Positions 708 through 27,695 of a stretch of DNA of 64,000 nt are shown piece after piece. The notes beneath the pieces are model-generated. The model did not search any database. It saw only the letters and a list, made by a program, of their open reading frames with translations, and was not told where the DNA came from. The first letter of the stretch is position 1, and every line of letters starts with the position of its first letter. The stretch comes from Phycisphaeraceae bacterium (GTDB lineage: Bacteria > Planctomycetota > Phycisphaerae > Phycisphaerales > Phycisphaeraceae), in assembly GCA_963674705.1 (NCBI GenBank), contig OY771506.1:1952001-2016000 (forward strand), written 5' to 3'. The position numbers and the translations under genes are program-made.

Positions 708-1988
708 CTATTCACCCTTAAACCGCGCAATCAGTGGCGCTGCCTGGTCCGCGTTAAGCATCTTCAGGTATGCCAGCTTGCCTGCAAGGCGCTGCCGTTC
801 TTTCGGATCAACGTTGTCACCTTGTTGCTTTTGACGATGGATCGCCGCCCGCAGCAATCGGCGGTCTTTGCGCGATAAGCCCATCTGCTCGTTCACCACG
901 ACGCCCGTCACGCGCTGCCTTCGGCCGCGCCGTTGCACCTGCGTCTTGTCGCGGTTTACCGTGAAGCCTTCTTCCTTGACGATGTCGCCGACCACGCTCA
1001 GAAGCGCGCCGACGTCGGCCGAATTACAGGAAAATGTCAGGTCGTCCGCGTAGCGCGTGTAGGTGTAACCCATCTTGCGAGCAAGCCCCGCCAGCCGACG
1101 GTCAAGCCGAAGCAGGATCGCGTTGCACAAGCCCGGGCTCGTCGGCGCACCCTGAACGCAGACGCGCGGCCCGACCGGCACGTGATACACCTTGCCCTCC
1201 GCTTCAACGGGCTGACGCTCAGATTCGGTCATCAACACCGCGAGCGTCGTCGCGACCGGGTAGCTGTACCCATAGGCGATCAACAACCCGCGCACCCGCC
1301 CGAAGTGTATCGACGGGAAACAATCTTTCAGGTCGATCCGCACCACGACTTCTTTGCCTACGTGCGCCGCTGCATTGCTTGCGACACTACGCGAGGTGAT
1401 GAAGCCGTGTGCGTGTTCGCTGATCGGCAGCTTGCTGACGAGCAGTACGTTTAGCTTGCGCTGGATCGCTTTGAGCTTTTGCTTGGGCGCGTGGATGATG
1501 CGCGTGCCGCCGCTGTGTTTTCGTATCGCAAAGCAGATGTAGTGCGGCGAGGTCTCTCGCTCGCGGTGGATGCTGTAGTGTCTGAGTTGCCCGACCGTCA
1601 GTCCGAGCGCTTGGGCGACATCCTGCTCGCTTTGCCAGACGGGCAGGTTGTAGCGGTTGAGCTGTTCTTTGTCTGTTGCCAGGTCGCGGATGTTGCGGTT
1701 GTTCGTCCGCATCGTCGAACTGAACAGCCGGTCCGCCTCTTCGCGCTGCATCAGTTTCTTTTTCTTCGACGTGGACCAGATGTTGCCGGTGCGCTTCGGC
1801 TCTTTTTTCGGAAGCAGGCGAGGGTCGCGCACGGTCAAGCGGCGATGGTTCGGCTTGATCGGTTCGCGTTTGGTGCTGACCGTTTCGGCCGTCGCAGACG
1901 CATCGGTATGGTCCGTCGACCGGGAGACATCGCGTGTCACCCGGCGCGGTTGGCCGAACAATCCTCGGAGCCAATCGATTAATCCCAT
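708..1988 (-). CDS. Retron-type RNA-directed DNA polymerase (reverse transcriptase) with N-terminal extension
   Basis: RT motifs DLKDCFPSI, QGAPTSP and YADD; retron signatures NAxxH (SNAAAH) and VTG (QRVTGVVVN). Confidence 0.95.
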   Translation of the reverse strand: MGLIDWLRGLFGQPRRVTRDVSRSTDHTDASATAETVSTKREPIKPNHRRLTVRDPRLLPKKEPKRTGNIWSTSKKKKLMQREEADRLFSSTMRTNNRNIRDLATDKEQLNRYNLPVWQSEQDVAQALGLTVGQLRHYSIHRERETSPHYICFAIRKHSGGTRIIHAPKQKLKAIQRKLNVLLVSKLPISEHAHGFITSRSVASNAAAHVGKEVVVRIDLKDCFPSIHFGRVRGLLIAYGYSYPVATTLAVLMTESERQPVEAEGKVYHVPVGPRVCVQGAPTSPGLCNAILLRLDRRLAGLARKMGYTYTRYADDLTFSCNSADVGALLSVVGDIVKEEGFTVNRDKTQVQRRGRRQRVTGVVVNEQMGLSRKDRRLLRAAIHRQKQQGDNVDPKERQRLAGKLAYLKMLNADQAAPLIARFKGE

Positions 1989-2007
1989 GACCGGCTCCGA
2001 TCAAAAC

Positions 2008-2193
2008 GAGGAAGACGCGAATGCCCGGGTTCTCTGGTGGACCACTCGCAAGGCTCTGGACTCGTGGCCTCCCGGCGTTGCGTACGCTGGGAACCGTGGC
2101 GGTGTGAAGCATACAAATCACCACCGCGGCGAAACACCGCGGCATCGTTGGCTGGTCGCAAGCCACCGAACCCGGGCATCACGCGTCCTCCTC
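2008..2193 (-). ncRNA. Retron msr-msd non-coding RNA (predicted)
   Basis: Inverted repeat 2008-2032 / 2168-2193 (about 25 bp, one bulge, G-U wobbles on the minus strand) enclosing hairpins at 2149-2165, 2124-2142 and 2070-2092, directly upstream of the RT start. Confidence 0.8.
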
Positions 2194-3783
2194 TTCGTTG
2201 GAAGTCTCATTATATTCGTCGCCGCTGTCAACCTCCCAGCGCGACGGCTGTTTACGCACCTGTTGTGTATCACTCTCCATCGCCGAGGTGCTGCTTGGCT
2301 GATCCTTACGCTGCGGCTCGCTTGCCTTGAAAAGCGCAAGCATGTGCTCGCAAGGTCCCTGGTTCATCAGGTTCTCATCGAAGAACGGGCAGCCGCATCG
2401 GCCGAAGATGATCCGACCCGAATCGTTGACCACCACCTCGACCGGTTTCACGCCGTCCACCTCGCCAAGCACGCGCCAATCACGATACACCACCTCGCGC
2501 GTGATCTTTCCCTCGGGCGTCTTCAGCTTACGCACCTTCTTCGTCTCTTCGACGTTGCACGAATCGATCTGCACGCGCTGTTCGTTCAGGAACTTCTCTG
2601 CTAACTCACGCCGACGGTCGGGCGGGAAGTACGTCGCTTCATCGGCAGGCTCTTCGAATAACTCACGATGCCGGTAACGCCGGTTCTCGACATCAAACAT
2701 GCACTGCCCACGCCGACACAGCCGCACCAACGTGCGCGACGCCGTCGGGTGATCGACGCCAAGCGATTCAGCCACCTCGCCGATCGATGCGTGATACTTT
2801 TCTCGCAATAAGCCAAGCACCGGCTCAAGTAGTCCATCATCCGCCTGCGCCGCTTCGGCCAGCGCATCGAACCCACCAGTTCCCGTAAACGCAGAGCCCG
2901 ACCAGCCCGTCATCCCCAGCAGGAACGTCATGCCCGGCAGCTTCACCGCGTAAAAACTCGGTAGCGCCCGGCCCTTCAGATAAATATCCACGCTCTCAGC
3001 AAACGGCAGCAAACCCTCGATCAGCTTCAGCCGCTGCCTGCCCCACACGCGCGTCGACTTCTGCTCCGTGTAGTTGTGTTCCGCGCCGATCAACGGCACG
3101 ACATGCTCCCAAGGCTCAAGCACCAGCCGCGCATCCTCGCCCGGCGGGAACTCATACCGCAGCGCACGCGGCGAAACCTTCGCCTTCGTGTATCGCATGA
3201 ATCGGATCGCAGATAACAAATCGATAGGCTTCACCGTCAGCCGTGTGCCCGGCATGCCCATCGCCGCCTGCACCTGCAAAAACCCGCGCACCCACGTCTC
3301 GGGCAGCTTCACCTTCTTCTCAAACCGCCCGCCCGCGCTCTGCGTCTCCACCGTTACACCCTCCGCGCCGATGCGGAACGTCGTCTCCCGGCTGCTTCGC
3401 ATCTCACCCAACGCGCCCCACAACCACGCGGTGAAGTCGATGTTCGTCGTCCCCGTCTGCACCTCGCCGACCGGCTCGAACACATCAGGGTCAACGATCA
3501 ACGCCGCATACGTCGATTGATCCTGGCTGAACGCTTCAAAGAAAATCCGATCCGGGTGCACCGTGATCACCGGGTCCAGCAAGTCGCTCTGCGCGATCCA
3601 CGTATCATCCGACCAGATCGCTTCGCCCAGCGCCCGCATCGCGACGCGGAAGATAAACCCGTGCTGCTTGATCTTGCCGTGGAAACGCACGGGCCGACGC
3701 GCGTTAGCCGCGATCCCAAGGTTCGCGCTGCTGCGGTCCGCTTCAAACACCGAAGGCGATGCGTAGTCGATCAGCACGATCAT
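2179..3783 (-). CDS. SWIM zinc-finger protein with internal winged-HTH, retron-associated
   Basis: C-terminal CxC-x12-CxH (GRCGCPFFDENLMNQGPCEH); HTH-like segment ASIGEVAESLGVDHPTASRTLVRL; acidic tail; ATGA overlap with the upstream gene. Confidence 0.85.
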   Translation of the reverse strand: MIVLIDYASPSVFEADRSSANLGIAANARRPVRFHGKIKQHGFIFRVAMRALGEAIWSDDTWIAQSDLLDPVITVHPDRIFFEAFSQDQSTYAALIVDPDVFEPVGEVQTGTTNIDFTAWLWGALGEMRSSRETTFRIGAEGVTVETQSAGGRFEKKVKLPETWVRGFLQVQAAMGMPGTRLTVKPIDLLSAIRFMRYTKAKVSPRALRYEFPPGEDARLVLEPWEHVVPLIGAEHNYTEQKSTRVWGRQRLKLIEGLLPFAESVDIYLKGRALPSFYAVKLPGMTFLLGMTGWSGSAFTGTGGFDALAEAAQADDGLLEPVLGLLREKYHASIGEVAESLGVDHPTASRTLVRLCRRGQCMFDVENRRYRHRELFEEPADEATYFPPDRRRELAEKFLNEQRVQIDSCNVEETKKVRKLKTPEGKITREVVYRDWRVLGEVDGVKPVEVVVNDSGRIIFGRCGCPFFDENLMNQGPCEHMLALFKASEPQRKDQPSSTSAMESDTQQVRKQPSRWEVDSGDEYNETSNEEEDA

Positions 3784-5690
3784 GCGACCACCTCCGCCGC
3801 TTCTTCAAGCCCGTACACGACAGGCCGCTCCGCCGCTAAGCGCAATCCCGGATATGCATGCAATACCCGACCGATCAGGCCGATCAATTGCTCCTTCGGA
3901 TACTTCTGGTCCGGCAAGCGCAACGCAAGCCGCGCCCGCTCCAGCACACGCTTCGCCGACGCCGCATCGTGCCTCGCCGCATTCGCCAGCGCATCGAACG
4001 CCGGCAGCCTCGTCTTACGATGGATCGGCCGGAGCAGCGTGCCCAGCAATATGTCCAACTGCTCCGCCGCCAGCGCACGCGCCTTTTCGTTATCCTGCTC
4101 CAGCACGCGATACGCCAGCATCTGCACGTGGATGTCCGACCCTTCGATCAGGTCACACACCGCGCCGGGCACTTCCAAGTAACTCTCAAACGACCGCACA
4201 AACATCAACCGCGCCAGCTTGTTCGTCTTCAACAACCGGTGATAGTCGTAAATCGAAAACGCCGGCACGCGCGTCAATACCTCCGATGCACGCTGCGCAA
4301 ACGCCGCCGGATCGCGATCGCGAATCGCCTGGTAATAATCGCCGAGCTTGTCCGCGGTCTCCATGAGTTTGTCTTGCTGCTTGTGCCCATAGATGTAGCT
4401 ATACGACGCCCGCGTCACATACCGGCTCGCCATCAGGTCGATCAGTTCTTCATCGTTTGCCTGCTGTGCCGCTTCAAGTAAAAGCGGATACCCACCCCAC
4501 CAGCTCGGCGTCACATGCGCTTTGTAAGGCCCGTGAATCAATCCGGGATACCGCTCATACATTTGGGCCGCGAGTTTGTCCTCCAGCCCGTGCACCCTCA
4601 CCATCCCGAACCCCGCCCAGTTCCACTCGCGCGACGCGCCCGCCAGCGCCCGCAACCGATCCAGCCGCTGTTCTTCTGCTAACCCATTATCAGCAAGCAG
4701 GTCCGACACCGCTTTGTTGAACGTGCTCGGATTACGATCCAACCGGATCGCCGTCGCCCACAGGTCCCACCACCCACGCTGCGCCGCCAGCTTGATCAAA
4801 GGCGTACCCCGGCTGCCGAACCACCCGCCGATCGCGCTGTTCAGGTTCGCTCGAACGTAAGGCATCACATCGCGCCCGCGCGCCTCAAGCAACTGCACCA
4901 TCCCCGATACCAGGTCCAGCCCGTAACCCGTCGGGTGAATCTGCTCAAGCGCTTCGTTCAGTTCTTCCGCATCACGCACCGACCCCGTCAGCCGCAGTGC
5001 ATCCTGCTGCCATTCCTTGACCGGCACCATCTTGCGGTAAAGCTCGTTCGCAAAATCCTTGTCCTGCGCATCACGCGCCGCCTGCTCCAGCTTCAGCCAG
5101 CGTTTGCGTTTTTCGCTACCCCAGAAACTCACCGGCAGATGCTTCAATATCATCGCGCTTGATGCGTGATCGATCCCGTACAGCTCTATCGCCGAATCTT
5201 CATCGAATTGAAACCACAGATCATTCTCATCCAGCACGATCGCCCGCGCCGCTGCCGTCGGCGCTTCGCGATACGCCTGGATCATGTCACGCTTCAGCAA
5301 CACGGTATTGATACGCCAGCCCGATGCCGGCGCATACCGCCACTGCATCAGCTTGCGGACCATCGTCGTGTCGCGGTGCTTTCGAGCGCTGGCAAGCCAC
5401 GCTTCCAACTCATCCGCGTAATCCGTCCAACGCACGCGCGCCCAGCGGAAGTTCGGCTCGATCATCCAGTCCGAAAAATGATTCAGAATCAAAGGCCGAA
5501 ACAACACACGGTTCCGCTCGTACAACATCGGCCCCCAGAACCACGTCAGCCCCGGGAACACATCCGATCGCGTCAGCCCCTCAATATGATCGCGCAGCCG
5601 CTGATCGTTCGGCTGCTGCTCGATCAATTCCTGCAGCGTCTTCTGTAACTGTTTGGCTTCCTGGCGTAACTTCGACACGTGATCCCCCAT
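3780..5690 (-). CDS. Large alpha-helical (ARM/HEAT-like) hypothetical protein, retron-associated
   Basis: 636-aa ORF rich in Ala/Leu/Arg/Trp, no signal peptide, GGAG RBS, translationally coupled to the SWIM gene. The fold is inferred. Confidence 0.7.
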   Translation of the reverse strand: MGDHVSKLRQEAKQLQKTLQELIEQQPNDQRLRDHIEGLTRSDVFPGLTWFWGPMLYERNRVLFRPLILNHFSDWMIEPNFRWARVRWTDYADELEAWLASARKHRDTTMVRKLMQWRYAPASGWRINTVLLKRDMIQAYREAPTAAARAIVLDENDLWFQFDEDSAIELYGIDHASSAMILKHLPVSFWGSEKRKRWLKLEQAARDAQDKDFANELYRKMVPVKEWQQDALRLTGSVRDAEELNEALEQIHPTGYGLDLVSGMVQLLEARGRDVMPYVRANLNSAIGGWFGSRGTPLIKLAAQRGWWDLWATAIRLDRNPSTFNKAVSDLLADNGLAEEQRLDRLRALAGASREWNWAGFGMVRVHGLEDKLAAQMYERYPGLIHGPYKAHVTPSWWGGYPLLLEAAQQANDEELIDLMASRYVTRASYSYIYGHKQQDKLMETADKLGDYYQAIRDRDPAAFAQRASEVLTRVPAFSIYDYHRLLKTNKLARLMFVRSFESYLEVPGAVCDLIEGSDIHVQMLAYRVLEQDNEKARALAAEQLDILLGTLLRPIHRKTRLPAFDALANAARHDAASAKRVLERARLALRLPDQKYPKEQLIGLIGRVLHAYPGLRLAAERPVVYGLEEAAEVVA

Positions 5691-15715: not shown

Positions 15716-15750
15716 GCTCCCGGCTGGTGAAAGCCGACCGGGAGTTTTGT
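15716..15750 (+). terminator. Intrinsic terminator-like hairpin
   Basis: CTCCCGG...GAAA...CCGGGAG followed by TTTTGT. Confidence 0.6.
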
Positions 15751-15824
15751 TGAAAAAACACGCACACGTATACCCGGCTATGCGGCCTGACAGCTCGCAT
15801 GTGTCCGGTGCTTGGAGGCACAAC

Positions 15825-16625
15825 ATGACCCGTCGAAGTGGTTTTACACTTATCGAATTACTCGTCGTCATTTCCATCATCGCGCTGCTGGTGGGTATTT
15901 TGCTGCCGGCGCTCGGCGCTGCGCGCAGGTCGGCACAAAGACTTCATGATCTGAGCAACCTCCGACAGTTCAACGTCGCGCACACGACCTGGGCCGTCGA
16001 CCACAAAGGCAAGCTGCCACAGGCGTCCACTTACAGCAACGCCGCGAATGCCTCGCTTAACGGCTGGTACCGTTTCGATCTGTTCAAGGAAATGACTGAC
16101 GGCTACGGACTGCCGCTGCAGGCTTTCGGCTGTATCAGTTACGACGAGTTAACCAATGAGTACGTCGAAGGGCTTAGGGAAGACAACACCACAGAACGAA
16201 TCTGGATCCACTGGATGTATTACGGCGGATTGAACGTCACCGCCGGGCCTAAAACACCCAACCCCGGCGGGATACAGATCGACATCGAGACCAAGGAAGA
16301 GTTTAACTTCCCCGCCACGATGGATGATGTCTGTGACAGTGAGATGCTGGCGGTTTGTTCTCACGGCATGACCAACCAGTCATGGGGCAGTTGGCTGCCG
16401 CACCTGAACGGGACCAATGAACGACTGGAGAAAGACAGCGGCAAGCTGTTTATCACACCCAGCCGCGTTCCGGTCTGGGACCGTTACCCGAAACAGTACA
16501 AGCCGGACGGTGTGAACGCTTCGTATCGCGACGGTTCGGCACATTGGATCGAAACCGACGATCTGGCGGTCTTCAGCCCGAAGAACTCCGGCATCACCAT
16601 GTACTTCTATGACAAACAGAAATAA
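15825..16625 (+). CDS. Prepilin-type N-terminal cleavage/methylation protein (DUF1559-like)
   Basis: [26 protein letters not shown]-terminal [14 protein letters not shown] at 15825 after GGAGG. Confidence 0.92.
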
Positions 16626-16706
16626 TGAGCCTTTCCGGAAACTAAAGCGTTCGTATAACGCAATCAGAATATGATGCACGCACATCAACACTGGAGGATG
16701 ATTGTG

Positions 16707-18305
16707 ATGAGAACACGATGGACACTCACGGCGGCCTGCCTGATACTCGGGCTGGTCGCCACCAGCCCCGCGCTGGCGGTATCAACCTATTCACCCAGTC
16801 AGGCTGACCTGTATGACATTGTCGACGTGACCCTTGACTGGGGCGGCGGCGGGTCTTTGTATACCGGCGGCGGCACCGCTTATGGATTGGTCGGTTCTGA
16901 CGGCGTTCGTTATGACATGGACTTCTCACCACTGGCGCCCCCGGCCGGTGATGGTTTCTCCCGCGTGGTACTTGCAAACAACAGTTTCAACGTCGATCTG
17001 ACCGGTTACGACCGGTTCGATATCCTGTTTACGTCTGAAACCCTTGAGGAGATGAAGGTCAAGACCTACATCAACACCGGCAGCACCGGTTTCTATCAGA
17101 GCGAGTTGACCTCCGTATTTGTAGATGACTACGAACCTACCCGGATCACAATCGATCTTTCGACCGTCGACAATCTCGATGACGTGCGCGGCTTCGGCAT
17201 CCAGATGCTTGTGCCGGGCAGCCCCATCGCGTATGCACAAACAGCGCTCGTGCAGACCGCGCCGCCTTACGTCGAAACCAAGATGGTCGAGGTCCTCAAG
17301 ATCGATTCATTTGAACGCACGGAACTGGCGACCGGGGCCGACGGCGACGGCTGGGCGCACTTCGGCTTCGTGCCCGGACCGACCGAATCCAACACGACCT
17401 TCGTCTCCACCACTGTCGGCGCGACCGACGGAACCTATGCCGGTAAAATCGTCCGTGCCGGCGGCGCGAACTCAACCTTCAAGTGGGGGATGGAACGCGT
17501 CTGGACATCCACTGGCGACGACAGGCCAGTCCCTGCCGATGCGGACTTCGACGACCCGGACGACACCGCCGTCCCCACAATCACGCAGGAAGAAGTGGAA
17601 CTGACCGCGGCCGCATTCAACGAGGCGACGCACATCGCTTTTGATGTGACCTATGACACCGCGGACTTTGGCCCGGAAGTGACATACGCCAAGCTCGCCA
17701 TCGTCATCAACGACAGCACCGGCGCGTGGTATCAGAAGGGCGGCGACCTGGCGTTCGTGAACCCGCAATACCTGGACCCGGGCACGACGACGCTTCACAT
17801 TGAAATGCCGTTGACGCAACTGCTCGCGGGTAGCAGCAGCAGTTATGTGCCGTTGGGCACGCCGTTCCAAGGCATCTTCATGGGCGGCGAAAACCCGGAA
17901 GACCCGGAAGGTGATCCGCTGCCGCCTTCCGACCTGATCGTGCTTGGTTTTGCGACCATCATCGGCGATGAGAACAACAACTCCGTCGCCGGCGCCGCGA
18001 TCATCGACAACCTCAGACTTCTCAAGAAAATCGCGGTTTCCGATATCCCCGGTGATTTAAACAACGACGGTTTCGTCGGCCTGGACGATCTGGACATCGT
18101 ACTGTCTAACTGGAACCAGAACGTCGCGGTCGGCGACCTGACAGCCGGCGATGCGACTGATGACGGGTACGTCGGTCTGGGCGATCTGGATATCATCCTG
18201 AACAACTGGAACGCCGGGACGCCGCCCGCGAACGTGGTGCCCGAACCGGCTGCCGTGATGTCGCTGCTCGTGCTGGGAAGCACGCTGGCCTGCCGCCGGC
18301 GCTAG
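16707..18305 (+). CDS. PEP-CTERM protein with CBM-like domains and a dockerin-like repeat
   Basis: Signal peptide; two GDLNNDGFVGLDDLDIVLSNWN-type repeats; VPEP sorting signal. Confidence 0.88.
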   Translation: MRTRWTLTAACLILGLVATSPALAVSTYSPSQADLYDIVDVTLDWGGGGSLYTGGGTAYGLVGSDGVRYDMDFSPLAPPAGDGFSRVVLANNSFNVDLTGYDRFDILFTSETLEEMKVKTYINTGSTGFYQSELTSVFVDDYEPTRITIDLSTVDNLDDVRGFGIQMLVPGSPIAYAQTALVQTAPPYVETKMVEVLKIDSFERTELATGADGDGWAHFGFVPGPTESNTTFVSTTVGATDGTYAGKIVRAGGANSTFKWGMERVWTSTGDDRPVPADADFDDPDDTAVPTITQEEVELTAAAFNEATHIAFDVTYDTADFGPEVTYAKLAIVINDSTGAWYQKGGDLAFVNPQYLDPGTTTLHIEMPLTQLLAGSSSSYVPLGTPFQGIFMGGENPEDPEGDPLPPSDLIVLGFATIIGDENNNSVAGAAIIDNLRLLKKIAVSDIPGDLNNDGFVGLDDLDIVLSNWNQNVAVGDLTAGDATDDGYVGLGDLDIILNNWNAGTPPANVVPEPAAVMSLLVLGSTLACRRR

Positions 18306-18429
18306 CACGTCACAGTGCGTTTGGTTAAGTTACTTTGACACCGCCCCGCCTGACAGCGCGGCGGTGCCTTTCAAGACGGGGTCGGCCCGTCTGGTTTCAA
18401 GTTTTTTTTTGAACACTTGGGTTGTGAAC

Positions 18430-19848
18430 ATGCGTCGACGGATTGGCTCGGGTTTGTTACCGATGATGGCTTGTGTTCTCGCCATGCACACCCCGTTGAT
18501 GGCTGAGACTGCTGCGGACACCGAGACCGAGCCGCAAAAAGAATTGACCGCTGAAAAAGAAATGGCTGACCTGTTATCCGCAAAGGTCGACCTGCAGACC
18601 AAGGAGCAGGACCTGCGCGCCGTCGCCGAGGCGATGCGTCACGAGGCGCTGTTGCTAACTTCGGTTTCCGAGATGCTCGACGGCGCAGCCGACTACCTTG
18701 ACCAGGCGGCGGTGTCTGTCGAGTCGTCGATCGAGGCGGTGCAGTCCGTTCGTAAGCAGGTGCCGAAGTTCGGCGAGGCGGTGTCCGATGCACGCTTCAG
18801 TCATATGACGCGCGGCGTAAACATGAGCCATTGGTTCTCGCAATCCGATGATGGGCAATATGACCCGGACTTCCTGAAGTCGAAGTACACCCGAAAAGAC
18901 TTCGACCTGATCCGGAGCATGGGATTCCGACACGTGCGGTTCCCTTTTGATCAATCGGTTTTATTTAATCCGAACGAGCCCGCGGAACTGAAGCCGGACT
19001 ATATCGAACTCTACCTGGCGAAGCTGGATGAAATGCTGGATGCCGACCTTGCGGTGATCGTTGTCATCCAGCCCAGTTATGGATTCAAGCAACAATTGCT
19101 CGACCCGGCGTTTGAACAGAAGGTGGCGACGTTCTGGCAGGCGCTGGCGTCTCGGTTGAGCAACCGAGACCCGGACCGTGTTTATCTGGAAGTTCTCAAT
19201 GAGCCGGCTCTGATGGAAACGGCGCAGTGGCGTCCGATCCAATGGCGCTTGCTGCAGGCGATGCGCGCCGGTGCGCCGGACCACACGTTGATTGCATCGG
19301 GCGGCAATTACTCCGGGCCGGAAGATTTGCTGAAGCTCGAACCTTACGCGGACCGCAACATCGTCTACAACTGGCATTACTACAAGCCGTTCGCATTTAC
19401 GCATCAAGGCGCGGCATGGGGCAAAGATACCTGGGCGAAGATGGCGGACATCCCGTGGCCTATGGATATCTCGGGCGTCCGCAAGGCGCTCGATGCGATC
19501 AAAGAACACGAGGTACGCATGGATATCCTGGGCACAACCTGGACGCGCGGCTCCGAAGCGTATCTGCGCAGCGACCTGCAGCGTGTCGCGGACTGGGCGG
19601 CGAACTATGGCACACGCGTCACCGCAAACGAGCTGGGCGTCTACACGCTCAAGGCCGACCGCGAATCGCGTCTGCGCTGGCACCACGTGGTGACATCAAC
19701 GCTCGACGATCTGGGTATCGGCTGGGCGATTTGGGATTACAGCGGGGGGTTTGATGTGGTGAAGAATATCGATGGCAAGCGCGTGCCGGATGAGCAGATG
19801 CTCGAAGCATTAGGCATGTCGCCATCCGGACAAGCCCCGCAGCAATAG
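18430..19848 (+). CDS. Glycoside hydrolase family 5 with an N-terminal coiled-coil segment
   Basis: RGVNMSHWF, GFRHVRFP, EVLNEP (acid/base), HYYKP and ANELG (nucleophile) motifs. Confidence 0.92.
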   Translation: MRRRIGSGLLPMMACVLAMHTPLMAETAADTETEPQKELTAEKEMADLLSAKVDLQTKEQDLRAVAEAMRHEALLLTSVSEMLDGAADYLDQAAVSVESSIEAVQSVRKQVPKFGEAVSDARFSHMTRGVNMSHWFSQSDDGQYDPDFLKSKYTRKDFDLIRSMGFRHVRFPFDQSVLFNPNEPAELKPDYIELYLAKLDEMLDADLAVIVVIQPSYGFKQQLLDPAFEQKVATFWQALASRLSNRDPDRVYLEVLNEPALMETAQWRPIQWRLLQAMRAGAPDHTLIASGGNYSGPEDLLKLEPYADRNIVYNWHYYKPFAFTHQGAAWGKDTWAKMADIPWPMDISGVRKALDAIKEHEVRMDILGTTWTRGSEAYLRSDLQRVADWAANYGTRVTANELGVYTLKADRESRLRWHHVVTSTLDDLGIGWAIWDYSGGFDVVKNIDGKRVPDEQMLEALGMSPSGQAPQQ

Positions 19849-19880
19849 GTATCGAAACATAGTTACGAACGTAAAACGTT

Positions 19881-21179
19881 TTGATGATGATGGACACACA
19901 CCTTACAACCCGCGACCAGCAAAGCTGCACCGCTAACCCGGAAGCGGCGTTGCGTAATCGTGTGTGTGACCATCTCAAACGGTTGGTGCTCGATTGCTGG
20001 TTCCCCGCGTGCATTGATCGGCAGGTCGGCGGTTTCCATCAGAACTTCAGCCGGGACTGGACGCGCAAACCGAGCACGACGCGGTCTCTGGTATTCCAGT
20101 CGAGGATGGCCTGGGTTGCGGCAGAAGCTTCGCATCTTTTCCCCAGCAAGCGAGATCATTATCTTGCGATCGCGCAGCACGGCCTGGATGGTATTCAACA
20201 GTACTTGGCCGACGGGGAGCAGGGGGGCTATTACTTCGCAACCGATCCGCCGGGCGTTCCAAGGGAAGCGGTCGATGTGAAGCATGCGTATGCGATGGCG
20301 TTCGTGATTTACGCCGCCGCAACCGCGAGCTTTGCCGGCGCTTCGGATCGTGCAAAATCCATGGCAATCGATGCGTTCACCTGGCTGTACAACAACGCAT
20401 GGGACCAAAAGCACGGCGGATGCCACGAAGCATTACAGCGATCGGGCAAGCCCGTCTGTGTTGACGCATCTGCCGATCAAGCATCAGGCAACGATTCGAT
20501 CGGCACGCCTCTTGCTCACAAGACCATGAATACGCACATCCATCTGCTCGAGGCCTGCACGGCGCTGTACCGCGTCTGGCCCGATCCGCTCGTAAAGCAA
20601 GTGATCGAAAATCTTCAGCAGTTGATCTACGAGAAGATGTGGGTTGAGCCGGGCACGGTGCACACAGTTTTCACGAACGACTGGGTGCCCGTTAAGGATG
20701 GCGAATCCTTCGGGCACAACGTCGAGACCGCCTACCTGCTTGTCGAATCCATGCATGCGCTTGGCAAGCCCGATGATGCAGACACGTGGGACAAGGCCCG
20801 GATGCTTGTCGACCATGCGCTGAAAGTCGGCTGGGACAAGGCGCACGGCGGCTTCTTCGATAGCGGCGACGGCAAAGGCGCGGTCAGCGACGATACCAAG
20901 ACATGGTGGGTCCAGGCCGAAGGGCTCAACGCGCTGTGTCTGATGCATAAACACTTTTACGCGCAAACCGATCGATACTTCGAGAAGTTACAGCAGCAGT
21001 GGGCGTTTATAACGCAGCACCAGACCGACAGCGTCCACGGCGGGTGGTACGGTTACCTCCGCTGGGACGGCGAACAGGTCCTGGACGGTGGCGAAAAAGC
21101 GAACGAATGGAAGACGGCTTACCACAACGCGCGTGCGTTGATGAACATTATCAGATTACTCGAACCAGGGGCGAAGTAA
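19881..21179 (+). CDS. AGE-family epimerase (cellobiose/mannobiose 2-epimerase)
   Basis: KTMNTHIHLLEA, SFGHNVE, WWVQAE and WKTAYHNAR motifs. Confidence 0.92.
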   Translation: MMMMDTHLTTRDQQSCTANPEAALRNRVCDHLKRLVLDCWFPACIDRQVGGFHQNFSRDWTRKPSTTRSLVFQSRMAWVAAEASHLFPSKRDHYLAIAQHGLDGIQQYLADGEQGGYYFATDPPGVPREAVDVKHAYAMAFVIYAAATASFAGASDRAKSMAIDAFTWLYNNAWDQKHGGCHEALQRSGKPVCVDASADQASGNDSIGTPLAHKTMNTHIHLLEACTALYRVWPDPLVKQVIENLQQLIYEKMWVEPGTVHTVFTNDWVPVKDGESFGHNVETAYLLVESMHALGKPDDADTWDKARMLVDHALKVGWDKAHGGFFDSGDGKGAVSDDTKTWWVQAEGLNALCLMHKHFYAQTDRYFEKLQQQWAFITQHQTDSVHGGWYGYLRWDGEQVLDGGEKANEWKTAYHNARALMNIIRLLEPGAK

Positions 21180-21257
21180 GTGAACCACAGACCGAAGTCG
21201 TGTTCGGTCGATTATGAAGTGCATGGGCCGATCAACCGGCCTAACCAGGATTGAACC

Positions 21258-22271
21258 ATGACCGAGATCGCATCCAATTCGACCAAAAAAATTCCCGTCC
21301 GCCCCATCAAGCAATCGCTGGTTGCACCGATGCCCTGGCAGGACAGGCCCGCCGGTTGCCATGACGTCGTCTGGCGCTACGACAAGAACCCGGTCATCCC
21401 GCGCAACCTGCTGCCGACCTCCAACAGCATCTTCAACAGTGCTGTCGTACGCTACGGTAATGCGTTTGCAGGTGTCTTCCGTGTCGACGATCAATGCCGA
21501 AACATGCGCCTCCACGCCGGCCGAAGCAAGGACGGCATCAACTGGCAGATCGATCCCGAGACGATCAAGTTCGTCTGTGATGATCCGGAGATCGGCGCGT
21601 TCTGCTACGGGTACGATCCGCGTGTCTGCTGGATCGAAGACCGCTATATCGTTACCTGGTGTAACGGGTATCACGGCCCGACCATCGGCGTTGCCTACAC
21701 GCACGACTTCAAAACCTTCCATCAATTGGAAAACGCTTACCTGCCGTTCAACCGCAACGGCGTGATGTTCCCGCGGAAGATCAACGGCAAGTACATGATG
21801 CTCAGCCGGCCCAGCGACAACGGGCATACACCCTTCGGTGAAATCTTCCTCAGCCAGAGCCCGGATATGATCCACTGGGGGTGCCACCGCCACGTGATGA
21901 AGCCCGAGCAGCCCTGGGAGTACACCAAGATCGGCGCTGGCCCGATCCCGATCGAGACCGATGAAGGCTGGCTGATGTTCTACCACGGCGTGCTGACATC
22001 CTGTAACGGTTTTGTCTACAGCTTCAGCGCGGCGCTGCTTGATCTTGATGAACCGTGGAAAGTCATCGCGCGTGCCAAGCCTTACATGTTCTCGCCGCAG
22101 CGTGATTATGAATGCGTCGGCGATGTGCCGAACGTCACGTTCCCCTGTGCGGCGCTGGTGGATGAAGAAACGGGTCGGCTCGCCATCTACTACGGTGCTG
22201 CGGACACGGTGACCGGGTTAGCGTTTGCCAAGCTCGACGAGGTGATCGCGTTCATCAAGGACAACGCATAA
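21258..22271 (+). CDS. GH130 beta-1,4-mannooligosaccharide phosphorylase
   Basis: [32 protein letters not shown] and YYGAAD motifs. Confidence 0.93.
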
Positions 22272-22281
22272 GCGGGCACAA

Positions 22282-23721
22282 GTGAACTTCAGACGCCGAC
22301 GACACAGGTTTATCAGTTCAGCCGTGGCCGTGGTGTTGCTTGTTCCGGTTTGCCTGGCGATGTTAAGTTGCGACAACCGGGTGCAAGACACCACCGACGA
22401 CGGCCGCGTCATCGTGCGCTACTGGGAAAAGTGGACGGATTTTGAATACGACGCCATGCGCGCCGTGGTCGATGACTTCAACAAGTCGCAGCAGCGGATC
22501 TATGTCGAGATGACGCAGATCAGTGAGCCTGACCGGAAGCTGATCCTGGCGACCGCGGGCGGCAATCCGCCTGATGTGGCGGGCCTGTGGTCGTACAACG
22601 TCAGCAGCTTCGCCGAAAAAGGTGCGCTAACGCCGTTAAGCAATCGGCTTGACGCGGTGGGTATCAATAAGGGTCAGTACATCCCGGCGTTGTGGGATAT
22701 CTGCTCGCATCGCGGCGAGGTCTGGGCGCTTCCTTCCACGCCCTCAACGCTCGCGCTGCATTGGAACCGCCGACTGTTCCGCGAAGCGGGCTTCGACCCC
22801 GACACGCCGCCGACTTCGCTCACGCAACTCGACGAGATGGCGGAACAGTTGACGATCGTCGAGATAAAACGCGACAACGAAACCGTGCGCGTCCGCTATA
22901 CCGAACTGACCGATAGCGAGAAGGCAGCCAAGGACTTCAGGATCATCCAACTGGGGTTCAGCCCGCACGAGCCCGGATGGTGGAAGCAGGCATGGGGCTA
23001 CTGGTTCGGCGCCGACCTGTGGGACGGCGACCGCACGATCGAAGCCGACTCACCGGAAAACATCGAAGCGTTCGAGTGGATCGCCGGCTACACCGAAAAG
23101 TACGGCGTGAAGAACATGCTCAGCTTCGGCGAATCGTTCGGCAACTTCTCCTCGCCTCAGAATCCTTTCCTCGATGAGCGCGTCGCGATGGAGATTCAGG
23201 GCGTGTGGATGTACAACTTCATCGAGAAGTTTTCGCCTAACCTGGATTGGGCCGCCGCCCCGTTCCCCTCGGCCTATCCCGACAAGCTGCCGAATGTCAC
23301 GATCGTTGAATGCGATGTACTCGTCATCCCCACCGGCGCGCGACACCCGGACGAGGCGTTTGAGTTCATCTGCTATGTCAACAGCCAGAAGCCGATGGAA
23401 AAACTCTGCCTCGGGCACCGTAAGTTCAGCGCATTCATCGAATACAGTGACGGCTTCGTCGAAAACCATCCGAACCCGTTCATTGATGTCTTCATCGAGC
23501 TTGCCAAGAGCCCGAACGGCAAGACCACGCCGCGCACCCCGATCTGGGAAAGCTATGAAGATGAACTGATCGTCGCCGCCGACCGTGTCTATCGACACAT
23601 CGCTACGCCACGGGATGCGCTCGCTTATGCACAGAACCGCTCCGCCAAGGCGATGGCCCGCAACCTCCGCGTCTGGGACGCCACCGCCGAAGCGCGCAAG
23701 AAAGAGTGGGCAGACCAATGA
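22282..23721 (+). CDS. Carbohydrate ABC transporter substrate-binding lipoprotein
   Basis: Lipobox MLSC; AGGNPPDV, LHWNRRLF and VAMEIQGVW motifs. Confidence 0.92.
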   Translation: MNFRRRRHRFISSAVAVVLLVPVCLAMLSCDNRVQDTTDDGRVIVRYWEKWTDFEYDAMRAVVDDFNKSQQRIYVEMTQISEPDRKLILATAGGNPPDVAGLWSYNVSSFAEKGALTPLSNRLDAVGINKGQYIPALWDICSHRGEVWALPSTPSTLALHWNRRLFREAGFDPDTPPTSLTQLDEMAEQLTIVEIKRDNETVRVRYTELTDSEKAAKDFRIIQLGFSPHEPGWWKQAWGYWFGADLWDGDRTIEADSPENIEAFEWIAGYTEKYGVKNMLSFGESFGNFSSPQNPFLDERVAMEIQGVWMYNFIEKFSPNLDWAAAPFPSAYPDKLPNVTIVECDVLVIPTGARHPDEAFEFICYVNSQKPMEKLCLGHRKFSAFIEYSDGFVENHPNPFIDVFIELAKSPNGKTTPRTPIWESYEDELIVAADRVYRHIATPRDALAYAQNRSAKAMARNLRVWDATAEARKKEWADQ

Positions 23722-24602
23722 CACGAGGCGAACGCCGAAAATTCTGGACCGGCCTCGCCTTCGTCAGCCCATGGGTCGTCGGCTTCCTCGTCTTCGGCCT
23801 GTACCCCATCGTCATGGCCGCCTACTACTCGTTCTGCAATTACAACGTCCTGCAGGATGCACAATTCGTCGGCCTGATCAACTACCAGGAAATGCTCGAA
23901 GACGATGTGCTCTGGAAAGCGCTTTACAACACGCTGTTCTACGCAATCTTCTCCGTGCCATTAGGTTTGATCGTCGCGCTGCTCTTCGCCGTCCTGCTTA
24001 ATCGCCCGATCTTCGGCCGCTCGATTTTCCGTATGCTGTTTTATGTCCCGTCGATCGTCCCACTTGTCGCGATCGCCATGATCTGGCTATGGGTGTTTAA
24101 CGGCGACGTCGGCCTGCTCAACTACGCACTGAGCCTCATCGGTATCGACGGCCCCAACTGGCTCGCCGACCCCGCGTGGACAAAACCAACGCTCATCCTC
24201 TCCGCCATCTGGATGGTCGGCGGCGCAATGGTTCTCTTCCTCGCAGGATTGCAGGACGTGCCGCGTTCGCTTTACGAATCAGCCGAGCTCGACGGCGCAG
24301 GCGCAGCCAAACAGTTCTGGCACATCACCGTCCCCATGGTCTCGCCCGTGATCTACTTCAACCTCATCATGGGCATCATCTACTCGATCCAGGAACTGGT
24401 CAGGCCCTACATCATGCTGCCCGACGGCGGACCCGACCGTTCGGGCCTGTTCTTCGCGGTCTATTTGTATCAAACCGCTTTCCGTGACCTGCGCATGGGC
24501 TACGCCTCCGCGATGGCGATGCTCATGTTCTTCATCATTTTGCTGCTCACGTGGGCTGTCACCAAGCTCATCCAAAGCCGTATCTATTACGAGGGAGCGT
24601 AA
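23718..24602 (+). CDS. Carbohydrate ABC transporter permease (MalF-like)
   Basis: Six hydrophobic segments; EAA loop LYESAELDGA; ATGA overlap with the binding-protein gene. Confidence 0.93.
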   Translation: MTRGERRKFWTGLAFVSPWVVGFLVFGLYPIVMAAYYSFCNYNVLQDAQFVGLINYQEMLEDDVLWKALYNTLFYAIFSVPLGLIVALLFAVLLNRPIFGRSIFRMLFYVPSIVPLVAIAMIWLWVFNGDVGLLNYALSLIGIDGPNWLADPAWTKPTLILSAIWMVGGAMVLFLAGLQDVPRSLYESAELDGAGAAKQFWHITVPMVSPVIYFNLIMGIIYSIQELVRPYIMLPDGGPDRSGLFFAVYLYQTAFRDLRMGYASAMAMLMFFIILLLTWAVTKLIQSRIYYEGA

Positions 24603-24604
24603 GC

Positions 24605-25594
24605 ATGCCGCGCTTCGGGTTCCAGGCGACCCGCCTCATCTTGATGATCGTGATCTGCGGCGTGTTCATCACACCGCTGCTATGGATGGTTTCAACATCG
24701 CTCAAGCCGTTGGACCAGACCATGCAGATGCCCCCGCGCTGGCTGCCTTACGAATGGCAGGCCACGATCGACGGCCAACTTGTCGCTGTTGATCTCAAAG
24801 ACAGCGAAGCCGTCGTCAAGGCAGGCGGCCCCATCAAGGTCGAAGTCGCCGAAGGCCCATCCAAAGGCGAGCCACACACCCTCGACGCATCACAACTACA
24901 ACGCAAAATCGCTCCGCAGTGGGGCAACTACAAAGAAGCCGTCCATGAGATGCGCGAGTTCCCGCGCTACCTGCGCAACAGCCTCATCCTCTGCACGCTT
25001 ACTGTCATCGGCACCGTCCTCTCCTGCTCCATCGTCGCCTACGGCTTCTCGCGCGTGGAGTGGAAAGGCCGCAACACGTTGTTCCTCGTCGTCCTTGCAA
25101 CGATGATGATCCCGTTCCCCGTCACGATGGTCCCGCTCTACGGCCTGTTCCGCGAGCTCGGTTTCATCGGCTCGCTCAAGCCACTTTGGGTCCCCACCTT
25201 CTTCGGCACAGCGTTCAACATCTTTCTACTCCGCCAGTTTTTCATGACCATCCCGCGCGATCTTTCCGAAGCAGCAAGGATCGATGGCTGCAGCGAGTTC
25301 ATGATCTTCATCAAGATCATCCTCCCGCTCGCCAAGCCTGCCGTCACCGTCGTCGCGCTCTTCCAGTTCCTCTATGCGTGGAACGACTTCCTCGGCCCGC
25401 TCATCTACCTCACCGACCAGAAAGACTTCACGCTCGCGCTGGGCTTACAGTTCTTCCAGAGCCAGCAAGGCGGGACACAATGGCATTACCTGATGGCCGC
25501 CAGCGCCCTCGTACTGCTCCCCGTCCTCCTGCTCTTCTTCTTCACACAACGCACCTTCATCGAAGGCGTTTCGATGTCAGGACTCAAAGCATAA
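24605..25594 (+). CDS. Carbohydrate ABC transporter permease (MalG-like)
   Basis: LSEAARIDGC EAA loop; WNDFLGPLIYL. Confidence 0.93.
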   Translation: MPRFGFQATRLILMIVICGVFITPLLWMVSTSLKPLDQTMQMPPRWLPYEWQATIDGQLVAVDLKDSEAVVKAGGPIKVEVAEGPSKGEPHTLDASQLQRKIAPQWGNYKEAVHEMREFPRYLRNSLILCTLTVIGTVLSCSIVAYGFSRVEWKGRNTLFLVVLATMMIPFPVTMVPLYGLFRELGFIGSLKPLWVPTFFGTAFNIFLLRQFFMTIPRDLSEAARIDGCSEFMIFIKIILPLAKPAVTVVALFQFLYAWNDFLGPLIYLTDQKDFTLALGLQFFQSQQGGTQWHYLMAASALVLLPVLLLFFFTQRTFIEGVSMSGLKA

Positions 25595-25719
25595 ACGACC
25601 CGAAAAACACAGAAAAACCGCAGTTTTATGCAGATTTATTGAGTAATTTTTATGTATTAAATCAGGCCCCCAAGTGGTACAATAGTTACTGGCCGCTTAT
25701 GGGGTGGAGGATCGTTACG

Positions 25720-27498
25720 ATGAAGTCTTACCTATCGCTCGCTCTGCTTTTCGCTATCGCGCAATCCTTCGTTTTCGCGCAGACATCCGCCGCCGCCACC
25801 TACCGATACGAAGCGGAAAACGCCACGCTCTTCGGCACCGCCGTCTCCAGCTCCTTCCCCGGCTACTCCGGTTCGGGATACGTCACCGACTTCAACGCCT
25901 CGGATGGCTCCGACCGCTTCCAGCTTAACGTCGACGTCCCCGAGGGCCGCTACGAACTGTGGATCGGCTACCGCTCGCAGTACGGCGACAAGGGCTACTA
26001 CTACAACATCGACGGCTCCACCGGCAGCGGCACCTTCGATCAATCCTTCTTCTTCAGCGAAGATCGCGCCGGCATCTTCGATCTCTCCGCTGGCATCAAC
26101 ACACTCGAGATCTCACAATTCTGGGGCTACTACGATGTCGACTACCTCGAGTTCCGCTCGCATGCGCCGACCGAGCTTTTGCCCGTCTCGCGCGCCCTCG
26201 TCGATTCACAGGCCGACCTGCAAACGCAGTGGCTACGCAACTACATGAACGATATCTACGGCAGCAAGTCGCTGTTCGGCCTGCAACACAACGGCAGCAA
26301 AAACCTTGCCTTCCCCGTTCAGGACTTCGTCAACATGGCAGGCGGATACACGCCCGCCATACGCTGCGCCGACTTCATCGAGTATTCCCCTTCAAGACTC
26401 GCCTACGGCTCAACCCCCGACAACGAATCCGAACAAGCCATCGCATGGGCACAGCAGACCGGCGGCGTCGTCTCCATGTCCTGGCACTGGAACGCACCCA
26501 CCGACCTCATCAACGAGCCCGACAAGGAATGGTGGCGCGGCTTCTACACCTATGCAACCACCTTCGACGTCGCCGCCGCCCTCGCCAACCCGGCCGGTGA
26601 AGACTACGCACTGCTTCTCCGCGACATCGACGCCATTGCAAGCGAATTGCAGAAGTTCGAAGATGCAGGCGTCCCCGTCATCTGGCGCCCCTTGCACGAA
26701 GCCCAGGGCGGTTGGTTCTGGTGGGGCGCGCAAGGCCCCGATGCCTTCAAGGAATTGTGGTCACTCATGTACGACCGCATGACCAACCACCACGGCCTGC
26801 ACAACCTCATCTGGGAGTTCACCTCCTCCGCCGCCGAGGGCGACTACCTCGATTGGTACCCCGGCGACGACGTCGTCGACATCGTCAGCGTCGACATCTA
26901 CACCGATCCCGAATCCAACATGAGCGGCCAATGGGCTGACCTGCTCGATCAATACAACGGCAACAAGATGCTCACGCTCTCCGAAACCGGCACGCTCCCC
27001 GACCCCGATGAAATGGACATGTGGGGTATCGACTGGGGCTACATCTCCACCTGGACCTGGGATCACATCCTCAATACCTACGCCGACGCCGGCTACAGCA
27101 CCGCCCAACTGCAAGCCATCCTCCAGAACTTCCTCAGCCACGAAGACATCATCACCCTCGACGAACTGCCCGCCACCCCATGGCTGCAAACCCTCCCCGG
27201 CGACCTCGACGCCGACGGCTTCGTCGGCCTCACCGACCTCGACCTCATCCTCCAATACTGGAACCAAACCACCAACGCCCAAAACCTCTTCGCCGACCCC
27301 TCCAACGACGGCTTCATCGGCCTCGACGACCTCGACATCGTCCTCGCCAACTGGAACACCGGCACCCCACCCACCACAACGGTACCCGAACCAACAACCA
27401 TGTCCTTACTGGTGATCAGTCTGGCTGCTGCATACCGTCGTACGCGTCGCCACACGCACTCATGTCTGACATCCACAGTTTGTGGTGCTGCGCGTTAA
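25720..27498 (+). CDS. GH26 beta-mannanase with an N-terminal CBM35-like domain, dockerin-like repeat and PEP-CTERM tail
   Basis: YEAENA...YSGSGYV (CBM); WHWNAP, WRPLHEAQGGWFWWG, WYPGDDVVDI and LSETG (GH26); VPEP tail. Confidence 0.93.
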   Translation: MKSYLSLALLFAIAQSFVFAQTSAAATYRYEAENATLFGTAVSSSFPGYSGSGYVTDFNASDGSDRFQLNVDVPEGRYELWIGYRSQYGDKGYYYNIDGSTGSGTFDQSFFFSEDRAGIFDLSAGINTLEISQFWGYYDVDYLEFRSHAPTELLPVSRALVDSQADLQTQWLRNYMNDIYGSKSLFGLQHNGSKNLAFPVQDFVNMAGGYTPAIRCADFIEYSPSRLAYGSTPDNESEQAIAWAQQTGGVVSMSWHWNAPTDLINEPDKEWWRGFYTYATTFDVAAALANPAGEDYALLLRDIDAIASELQKFEDAGVPVIWRPLHEAQGGWFWWGAQGPDAFKELWSLMYDRMTNHHGLHNLIWEFTSSAAEGDYLDWYPGDDVVDIVSVDIYTDPESNMSGQWADLLDQYNGNKMLTLSETGTLPDPDEMDMWGIDWGYISTWTWDHILNTYADAGYSTAQLQAILQNFLSHEDIITLDELPATPWLQTLPGDLDADGFVGLTDLDLILQYWNQTTNAQNLFADPSNDGFIGLDDLDIVLANWNTGTPPTTTVPEPTTMSLLVISLAAAYRRTRRHTHSCLTSTVCGAAR

Positions 27499-27633
27499 GA
27501 ATCTGTCACGACATGGTTTACCGCTGCGTCTGAAAATCTGGCGGGTTGCCCCAAACCACTAATTTCATAATATAAGATACAAATATATTGTAATTACTAT
27601 AAGAATTGTTACGCTGATTGATGGTGCTTGCCA

Positions 27634-27657
27634 CCGAGTAGCCGAGTAGCCGAGTAG
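27634..27657 (+). repeat. Short tandem repeat (CCGAGTAG)x3
   Basis: Three exact 8-mers about 40 bp upstream of the start at 27696. Confidence 0.85.
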
Positions 27658-27695
27658 ACGTAATACCCATTCATGTCAGAAAGTGAGGGGATGCG

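Follow-up and report, generated by a model that had tools for sequence, protein, structure and literature searches.

A type XIII retron from a Phycisphaeraceae genome and the predicted sliding-clamp fold of its SWIM partner

Type XIII is the family of the first retron discovered and contains the classic myxobacterial retrons. As described by Mestre et al. (2020, PMC7736814), a type XIII system combines a clade-10 reverse transcriptase (RT) with a cluster-114 protein that carries a DEDE motif, a winged helix and a SWIM finger, often with a preceding HEAT/ARM gene, and the named members are Retron-Mxa1/Mx162, Mxa2/Mx65, Sau1/Sa163 and Nex2/Ne144. In a 2026 survey, Planctomycetota contributed 26 of the 143 candidates for type XIII (PMC13712802). 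Here we describe a locus of this kind in a 64,000-nucleotide (nt) stretch of a Phycisphaeraceae bacterium genome (assembly GCA_963674705.1, contig OY771506.1, positions 1,952,001 to 2,016,000), which we call the window. The locus encodes a 636-amino-acid (aa) helical solenoid, a 534-aa SWIM protein and a 426-aa RT, with a structured RNA just before the RT, and structure prediction gave the SWIM protein an N-terminal region resembling a PCNA-type sliding clamp. We did not find this fold of the SWIM partner in print: no link of type XIII or its SWIM protein to a clamp appeared among the papers listed by literature searches, as judged by titles and abstract openings, and the article by Mestre et al. 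uses neither "clamp" nor "PCNA" in its main text (PMC7736814).

Class of the locus and its relation to described retrons

The three genes form a 5-kb cassette of intact open reading frames (ORFs), all on the minus strand, in which the 636-aa and 534-aa genes overlap by an ATGA (3780–3783). This tight, co-oriented packing had been noted in a first-pass annotation made from the sequence alone. In PADLOC, the RT matched RT_XIII at 444 bits (next model, 307) and the 534-aa protein matched SWIM_XIII at 483 bits. The locus is therefore an intact type XIII retron, an assignment we regard as practically certain, and its architecture belongs to a class already established in 2020; by its accessory family and its RNA subtype it looks like a new variant. 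The annotation had called the locus a retron, had guessed an Mx162-like type XIII system and had suspected an architecture already classified, and these matches, together with an msr-msd RNA holding an invariant AGC, bear it out.

VTG is a motif of retron RTs. The window RT carries it at residues 360–362, with NAAAH at 205–209 and YADD at 313–316 (these two as described in PMC6868368), the same three motifs that had been read in the first pass. The RT core matched the solved structures of the characterised defence retrons Ec86, Ec78/Ec83 and Ec67 with E values of 1e-19 to 1e-30, and no type XIII RT appeared by name among the 12 matches in the Protein Data Bank. With these three systems the window locus has the RT core and the msr-msd layout in common. 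In those systems the effector is an enzyme (nucleoside transferase, ATPase-HNH, Toprim), whereas no enzyme effector was recognised in the window cassette.

In a tree of 26 rows, without an Mx162/Mx65 reference, the window RT grouped with SWIM-linked RTs and apart from the Ec67 family. Ten RTs linked to a 636-aa-type accessory formed one long-stemmed clade (100/100) among the other SWIM-linked RTs, and the RTs of two loci in which no SWIM neighbour was seen (L150, L151) also fell among the SWIM-linked RTs, with weak support. Type XIII as a whole did not come out of the tree as a resolved single branch.

Like Mx162, Mx65, Sa163 and Ne144, the locus has an RT_XIII with an N-terminal extension, a cluster 114-type DEDE/winged-helix/SWIM protein, an upstream HEAT/ARM-like gene and an msr-msd with the CAGC priming context. 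It differs from type XIII loci elsewhere in that its accessory protein has no WGR domain and falls outside the WGR_XIII model and the three HEAT-ARM_XIII models that other loci match, in that the RTs of its group form their own clade, and in that the RNA model of its group gives other type XIII loci 25 bits or less. By published descriptions of Mx65 and Mx162, the predicted multicopy single-stranded DNA (msDNA) of about 60–65 nt is nearer that of Mx65; unlike the window locus, however, Mx65 has GAGC as its priming context and no N in the NAxxH motif (PMC6868368).

The SWIM partner and its predicted clamp fold

AlphaFold modelled the 534-aa protein from 145 homologues with a predicted local distance difference test score (pLDDT) of 90.6 and a predicted template modelling score of 0.90, and the five models agreed (pLDDT 88–91). 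The top Foldseek match was human PCNA (E 8.7e-8, probability 1.0), and all rows listed were clamps. VIA aligned model residues 34–295 with a whole archaeal PCNA chain (1–245) at Z 14.7, over 213 residues and with a root mean square deviation (rmsd) of 2.7 Å; its first 30 rows were PCNA, 9-1-1, beta, gp45 or UL44, and the model matched mostly PCNA and beta clamps in a viral structure library. From these models, residues 33–295 are predicted to be a full two-domain PCNA-type clamp subunit.

Seven conserved basic residues lie on or next to the clamp helices, with the following lysine or arginine fractions among the 145 homologues: R46, 0.87; R129, 0.98; R206, 0.92; R209, 0.90; R245, 0.97; R249, 0.97; and R251, 0.94. 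The corresponding helices in PCNA face DNA. PCNA, 9-1-1 and beta clamps resemble the window protein both in these residues and in the predicted two-domain subunit (Z 11–14.7, rmsd ∼3 Å over 210–220 residues). An internal repeat between the two clamp domains was undetectable by profile, and the host genome has its own DnaN elsewhere. The model suggests that the clamp-SWIM protein is likely to grip DNA rather than cut it.

The published view of this protein is different. Cluster-114 proteins have been described as possibly transposase-derived, with a transposase-like DEDE motif, and type XIII is placed among nuclease-linked systems (PMC7736814). The motif is present in the window protein (D70-x7-D78-x4-E83-x32-D116-x38-E155; the published last gap is 37), and acidic residues are conserved in a diverse subset (D70, 95%; E83, 100%; D88, 98%; D116, 83%), which would suit a clamp-derived nuclease in which D70, E83, D88 and D116 form a metal site and the clamp-SWIM protein is the toxic effector, akin to the DEDE proposal. 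However, these acidic residues, as well as D78 and E155, all lie in the region superposed on PCNA, where they can be structural, and no RNase H or transposase fold was among the Foldseek and VIA matches listed for the model. We also know of no clamp fold with catalytic activity, and we consider a nuclease quite unlikely.

Beyond the clamp region, residues 313–378 form a winged helix in the model, with VIA scores of Z 9.3–9.7 to Z-alpha and IclR-type domains; Pfam gave sub-threshold winged-helix matches at 319–363 (MarR_2, E 0.002). A Z-alpha reading was dropped because the two domain types were tied and the Z-alpha contact residues were not evident by eye. The SWIM finger (C463-C465-C478-H480) scored 25.3 bits against Pfam SWIM PF04434 (cut-off 19.6), with each ligand 94–98% conserved in the diverse subset. 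The first-pass annotation had named the winged helix and the SWIM finger, and the helical repeats of the 636-aa protein, a generic ARM/HEAT solenoid in its model; it had missed the predicted N-terminal clamp. It had also reported no WGR domain, and domain searches of the three cassette proteins returned none. BRCT and WGR are DNA-break-associated modules. Among 54 scanned homologues of the clamp-SWIM protein, BRCT fusions occurred in P0290 and P0333 and a WGR fusion in P0310. Another homologue, P0284, is fused to a TPR-like region.

The RNA, the reverse transcriptase and the solenoid

The spacer between the SWIM and RT genes (1989–2178, 190 nt) has 17-nt inverted arms at 2021–2037 and 2163–2179. 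As a 211-nt sequence, it folded with a z-score of −2.66 (3 of 200 shuffles equal or better), its 169-nt core reached z −4.2 (40 shuffles), and z was −2.6 or lower in 25 of 26 spacer sequences, L003 excluded. In an alignment of 27 related spacers, from which the structure itself was derived, 97.1% of cells paired and 8 of 36 pairs showed two-sided changes; none of 500 shuffles reached the observed pairing, and slid controls paired in only 35–52%. The a1/a2 closing stem carried two-sided changes in seven of its eight pairs. The msr stem-loop was paired in 99% of cells, with both sides of one pair changed in 7 of the 27 sequences, and is a likely RT recognition element, whereas the msd hairpin was almost invariant, 9 of its 10 pairs never varying. 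The structured spacer seen before the RT in the first pass is conserved in its pairing.

The trinucleotide AGC is invariant in all 27 spacers, its G being window position 2152, and the preceding base is C in 25 and T in two. Mx162 and Sa163 also prime within a CAGC (PMC6868368), and G2152 is the predicted branch point. With priming there, next to the CCA/TGG pair, the msDNA would start at 2045 and measure about 60–65 nt; the spacer RNA is predicted to be copied by the RT into a short branched msDNA. Folded as DNA, the msDNA hairpin (2070–2092) gave a z-score of only −0.67.

In one sub-group of loci, the bulge in arm a1 is a direct repeat of the template's first bases, and the two vary together. 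Among seven loci picked by eye, the last five bases were identical in 6 of 7 own pairs versus 8 of 42 cross pairs; 19 of the 20 remaining loci had no repeat and one was not scored. A held-out locus, L154, also fits, for a total of seven of eight loci of that sub-group. The 5′ end of the msDNA could thus pair back on the RNA beside the branch, and we mention such a fold-back onto the 2156–2162 bulge as a lead only.

An RNA model built from the alignment recovered four held-out loci of the same group at 62–197 bits; L111, which it also found, is the training locus L025 refetched. The model had no match in DUF6493-type loci or in L034, and Rfam gave no match to the spacer.

Among 30 relatives with an intact start, 24 RTs open with a hydrophobic 17-residue stretch of mean hydropathy at least 1.9, while the window RT and the other six relatives open mostly with a short amphipathic-looking helix, start codons being inferred throughout. 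Membrane tethering of the RT is likely from these sequences. The hydrophobic starts (L037–L082, L086) look like a transmembrane helix followed by basic residues. One clamp-binding motif is QL[SD]LF. Within the N-terminal extension, RT residues 83–93 (window 1710–1742) form a conserved RLF-containing stretch loosely like this motif, a candidate RT-clamp contact.

The 636-aa protein was modelled as nearly all helix (pLDDT 93.1) and matched generic ARM/HEAT folds only (best Z 9.2, rmsd 10.6 Å); structure searches recognised no catalytic or enzyme fold in it. Its gene stands directly upstream of the SWIM gene, as does the HEAT/ARM-like accessory in many, though not all, type XIII loci. We found 315 homologues among 8000 candidates scored. 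PADLOC returned no match at E 1 or below, and the WGR_XIII model and three HEAT-ARM_XIII models matched neither the window protein nor four homologues, while matching four control accessory proteins. With hhalign, the family aligned with the catalogued type XIII accessory families at a probability below 1%. Set apart by these models, the 636-aa proteins may be a separate, well-populated family, or may belong to a cluster for which PADLOC has no model. Homology to WGR/HEAT-ARM_XIII went undetected, a GPF..W.G-like stretch aligning at E 0.07 only, and we found no support for the name "gliding motility protein" that NCBI gives to two homologues. All atlas matches scored below 0.9. A scan of 7999 candidates showed no longer fused form, though this counts as weak evidence.

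Across type XIII it is the solenoid that varies, being of the 636-aa family here, of WGR/HEAT-ARM types elsewhere and replaced by DUF6493 in distant pairs, and such turnover fits a host-phage interface. In addition, co-evolution of the RT and the accessory protein is reported for type XIII (PMC7736814). The 636-aa protein might then be the real effector, or the receptor for a phage protein, with the clamp protein serving only as an adaptor to RT-msDNA. However, the solenoid model offers no recognisable catalytic fold, and among close matches the clamp-SWIM protein is the more conserved partner (68–84% versus 53–62% identity). We regard this arrangement as improbable.

Distribution and proposed mode of action

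The cassette was traced in 63 loci, retrieved with either the 636-aa protein or the SWIM model as query (80 of 137 matches kept), a set that leans to close relatives and includes near-duplicates. The SWIM gene lies directly downstream of the solenoid gene in 54 of these loci and the other nine end within 83 bases, and wherever a locus had 2.2 kb or more of room, the RT was there (32 of 32). The four parts of the cassette, the RNA included, co-occur. A more distant locus (solenoid 32% identical) keeps the gene order, and the closest named relative, a Phycisphaeraceae assembly, has 96–99% identity in all three proteins. The distribution is patchy: among 60 genomes of the same family a single one had a match, a same-genus genome had none, and SWIM_XIII occurred in 33 of 401 genomes of the phylum, that of the window included. 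No phage-borne copy was found by single-protein query in viral contigs or in 50,697 phage records.

Characterised retrons are autoinhibited msDNA-RT-effector complexes (PMC13376987), and it is from these other retron types that we take the logic of a parked complex. In the window cassette, the recognisable modules of both partners are all DNA-binding or protein-scaffolding, and profile and structure searches recognised an enzyme domain in neither, as the annotation had remarked of toxic domains. If an anti-phage function is assumed, the RT and the msDNA, with its nearly invariant hairpin, would keep the clamp protein and the solenoid parked, probably at the membrane, in an assembly that looks like a DNA junction with a clamp loaded on it and serves as a decoy. 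A phage protein with clamp-binding or DNA-end-processing activity would upset this decoy and release the two partners; these would go on to engage replicating DNA or components of the replisome, stalling phage as well as host replication. We infer every step beyond the clamp fold, and we judge this decoy reading the likeliest of those considered, though tentatively, at somewhat short of an even chance. In its favour we count the predicted clamp fold, the conserved basic residues, the BRCT and WGR fusions of homologues, the co-occurrence of the cassette parts, the patchy distribution and the hydrophobic RT starts of relatives. A more elaborate form, which we think unlikely, has the diverged clamp ringing the msDNA hairpin to make a membrane-tethered decoy junction, from which phage proteins would spring a non-enzymatic, DNA-jamming effector, and takes SWIM + DUF6493 pairs as the RT-free ancestral form.

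Several observations weigh against the decoy reading, the first of them concerning the fold. In the model, a helix (162–175) separates the two clamp domains at the position of the connecting loop of PCNA, and the cassette has no clamp-loader-like gene. Other differences from PCNA, 9-1-1 and beta clamps are extra N-terminal strands and the fused winged helix-turn-helix and SWIM finger. Identity to clamps is only 8–14%, and hhalign against 30 DnaN sequences was not significant (probability 0.4–1.6%, E 0.03–0.14). The clamp likeness could on these grounds be a modelling artefact, or the cassette an inert passenger, yet five models agree, two aligners and two libraries return clamps, no ORF is broken and the RNA shows covariation; we consider either alternative very improbable.

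The other contrary observations concern function. In the literature searched, we found no anti-phage test of any type XIII retron, nor a solved structure or tested mechanism for the type. Type XIII correlates with host 16S, and domestication has been suggested (Mestre et al., PMC7736814). The retron sits among sugar-utilisation genes, outside any defence island: none of 12 right-flank proteins had a PADLOC match, and genes for glycoside hydrolases, for a sulfatase and for an alpha-2-macroglobulin lie nearby. Two loci that are identical over the cassette, L034 and L035, have lost the RNA and the N-terminal half of the RT while both partner genes are intact, and one genome (G190, 99% complete) has a SWIM-clamp gene with DUF6493 and no RT_XIII match. 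Both cases speak against lethality of the pair in the absence of msDNA, the L034/L035 case being a single event and perhaps an assembly error.

The 16S correlation (PMC7736814) and the position outside a defence island would also fit a domesticated, non-defence role, in which an msDNA-regulated clamp/solenoid scaffold senses DNA damage or DNA ends for the host chromosome; the PCNA/9-1-1 fold and the BRCT and WGR fusions among homologues point the same way. The very patchy distribution described above speaks against such a role, as do relatives on 25 plasmid records, one of them beside an integrase and a toxin-antitoxin pair. We rate a domesticated role as doubtful, though still worth considering. 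With a clamp fold predicted, a question about type XIII that has long stood open becomes testable: experiments would turn from nuclease activity to whether the protein forms rings, whether it binds DNA and whether phage clamp-binding proteins act as triggers. The compact locus with its short, nearly invariant msDNA hairpin is a practical model.

Distant clamp-SWIM homologues (24–30% identity) lie upstream of DUF6493/DUF7824/DUF7825 genes in 7 of 20 fetched regions and also on plasmids, and Pfam confirmed the DUF6493-type pairing in five of the seven. These pairs resemble the window cassette in coupling a clamp-SWIM homologue to a large partner gene, but the partner is downstream and of another family, there is no RT in the fetched flanks, and the RNA model has no match. 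Besides G190, two DUF6493-type genomes were checked: in one, an RT scoring 353 bits lies at a distance of 1.2 Mb, and in the other there is a weaker split match on another contig. On a Diaphorobacter plasmid (L114:5752–12085), a site-specific integrase and a VapBC-type pair are followed by a SWIM gene and two DUF6493 genes.

Other loci depart from the cassette in various ways. In L034:9464–9482 (the same in L035), the sequence jumps from the start of arm a1 into mid-RT, with ∼234 RT residues lost; either a natural deletion or a faulty assembly may account for the jump. In L003 (8001–14815), both partner genes are frameshifted and a 2-kb insert is present, while the RNA and the RT are intact; a serine-hydrolase-like gene (SxxK motif, by eye) lies between the SWIM gene and the RNA-RT part. 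Two SWIM + HEAT-ARM loci taken at first as RT-less (L094, L098; no RT in 16–17 kb) proved, once their whole genomes were searched, to have an RT_XIII 12–13 kb upstream, on the same strand of the same contig. Large type XIII loci at G306:C17:94375–110158 and G214:C301:13346–28309 place the RT 12–13 kb upstream of the SWIM gene, across giant HEAT-repeat genes.

The features of the window locus are collected in Table 1.

Table 1. Features of the retron locus in window coordinates
Feature	Coordinates	Strand	Basis
636-aa all-helical (HEAT/ARM-like) solenoid, accessory protein	3780–5690	−	ORF, AlphaFold model
534-aa SWIM_XIII protein (Mestre cluster 114-type): clamp-fold region, winged helix, beta-sheet, SWIM zinc finger	2179–3783	−	PADLOC, model
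Predicted two-domain PCNA-type sliding-clamp subunit, residues 33–295	2899–3687	−	Foldseek, VIA
Winged helix-turn-helix, residues 313–378	2650–2847	−	VIA, Pfam
SWIM zinc finger CxCx12CxH, residues 449–487	2323–2439	−	Pfam PF04434
msr-msd non-coding RNA with a1/a2 closing stem	2021–2179	−	Folding, alignment
CAGC, predicted 2′-5′ branching G at 2152	2151–2154	−	Alignment; Mx162/Sa163 context
msr stem-loop (9 bp), likely RT recognition element	2122–2144	−	Alignment pairing
Predicted msDNA, ∼60–65 nt, with 9-bp hairpin 2070–2092	2045–2108	+	Priming at G2152; both ends predicted
CUUGCGA bulge in arm a1, direct repeat of first template bases (2046–2052)	2156–2162	−	
426-aa retron reverse transcriptase (RT_XIII) with N-terminal extension	708–1988	−	PADLOC, motifs, tree
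Terminator-like hairpin with T-rich tail, just past the RT stop	667–680	−	Consensus match only

No sigma-70 consensus promoter was found at the locus, and terminator-like hairpins numbered eight in the region, with 5.0 expected by chance. The left neighbour of the cassette is a gene of glycoside hydrolase (GH) family GH127, and to the right lie GH43, sulfatase and mannan-utilisation genes. Around the retron (window 15747–28817; L155:9026–14385), we observed sugar-utilisation clusters (GH5, GH26, GH130 and an epimerase; GH127 and an arabinofuranosidase) together with an alpha-2-macroglobulin gene.

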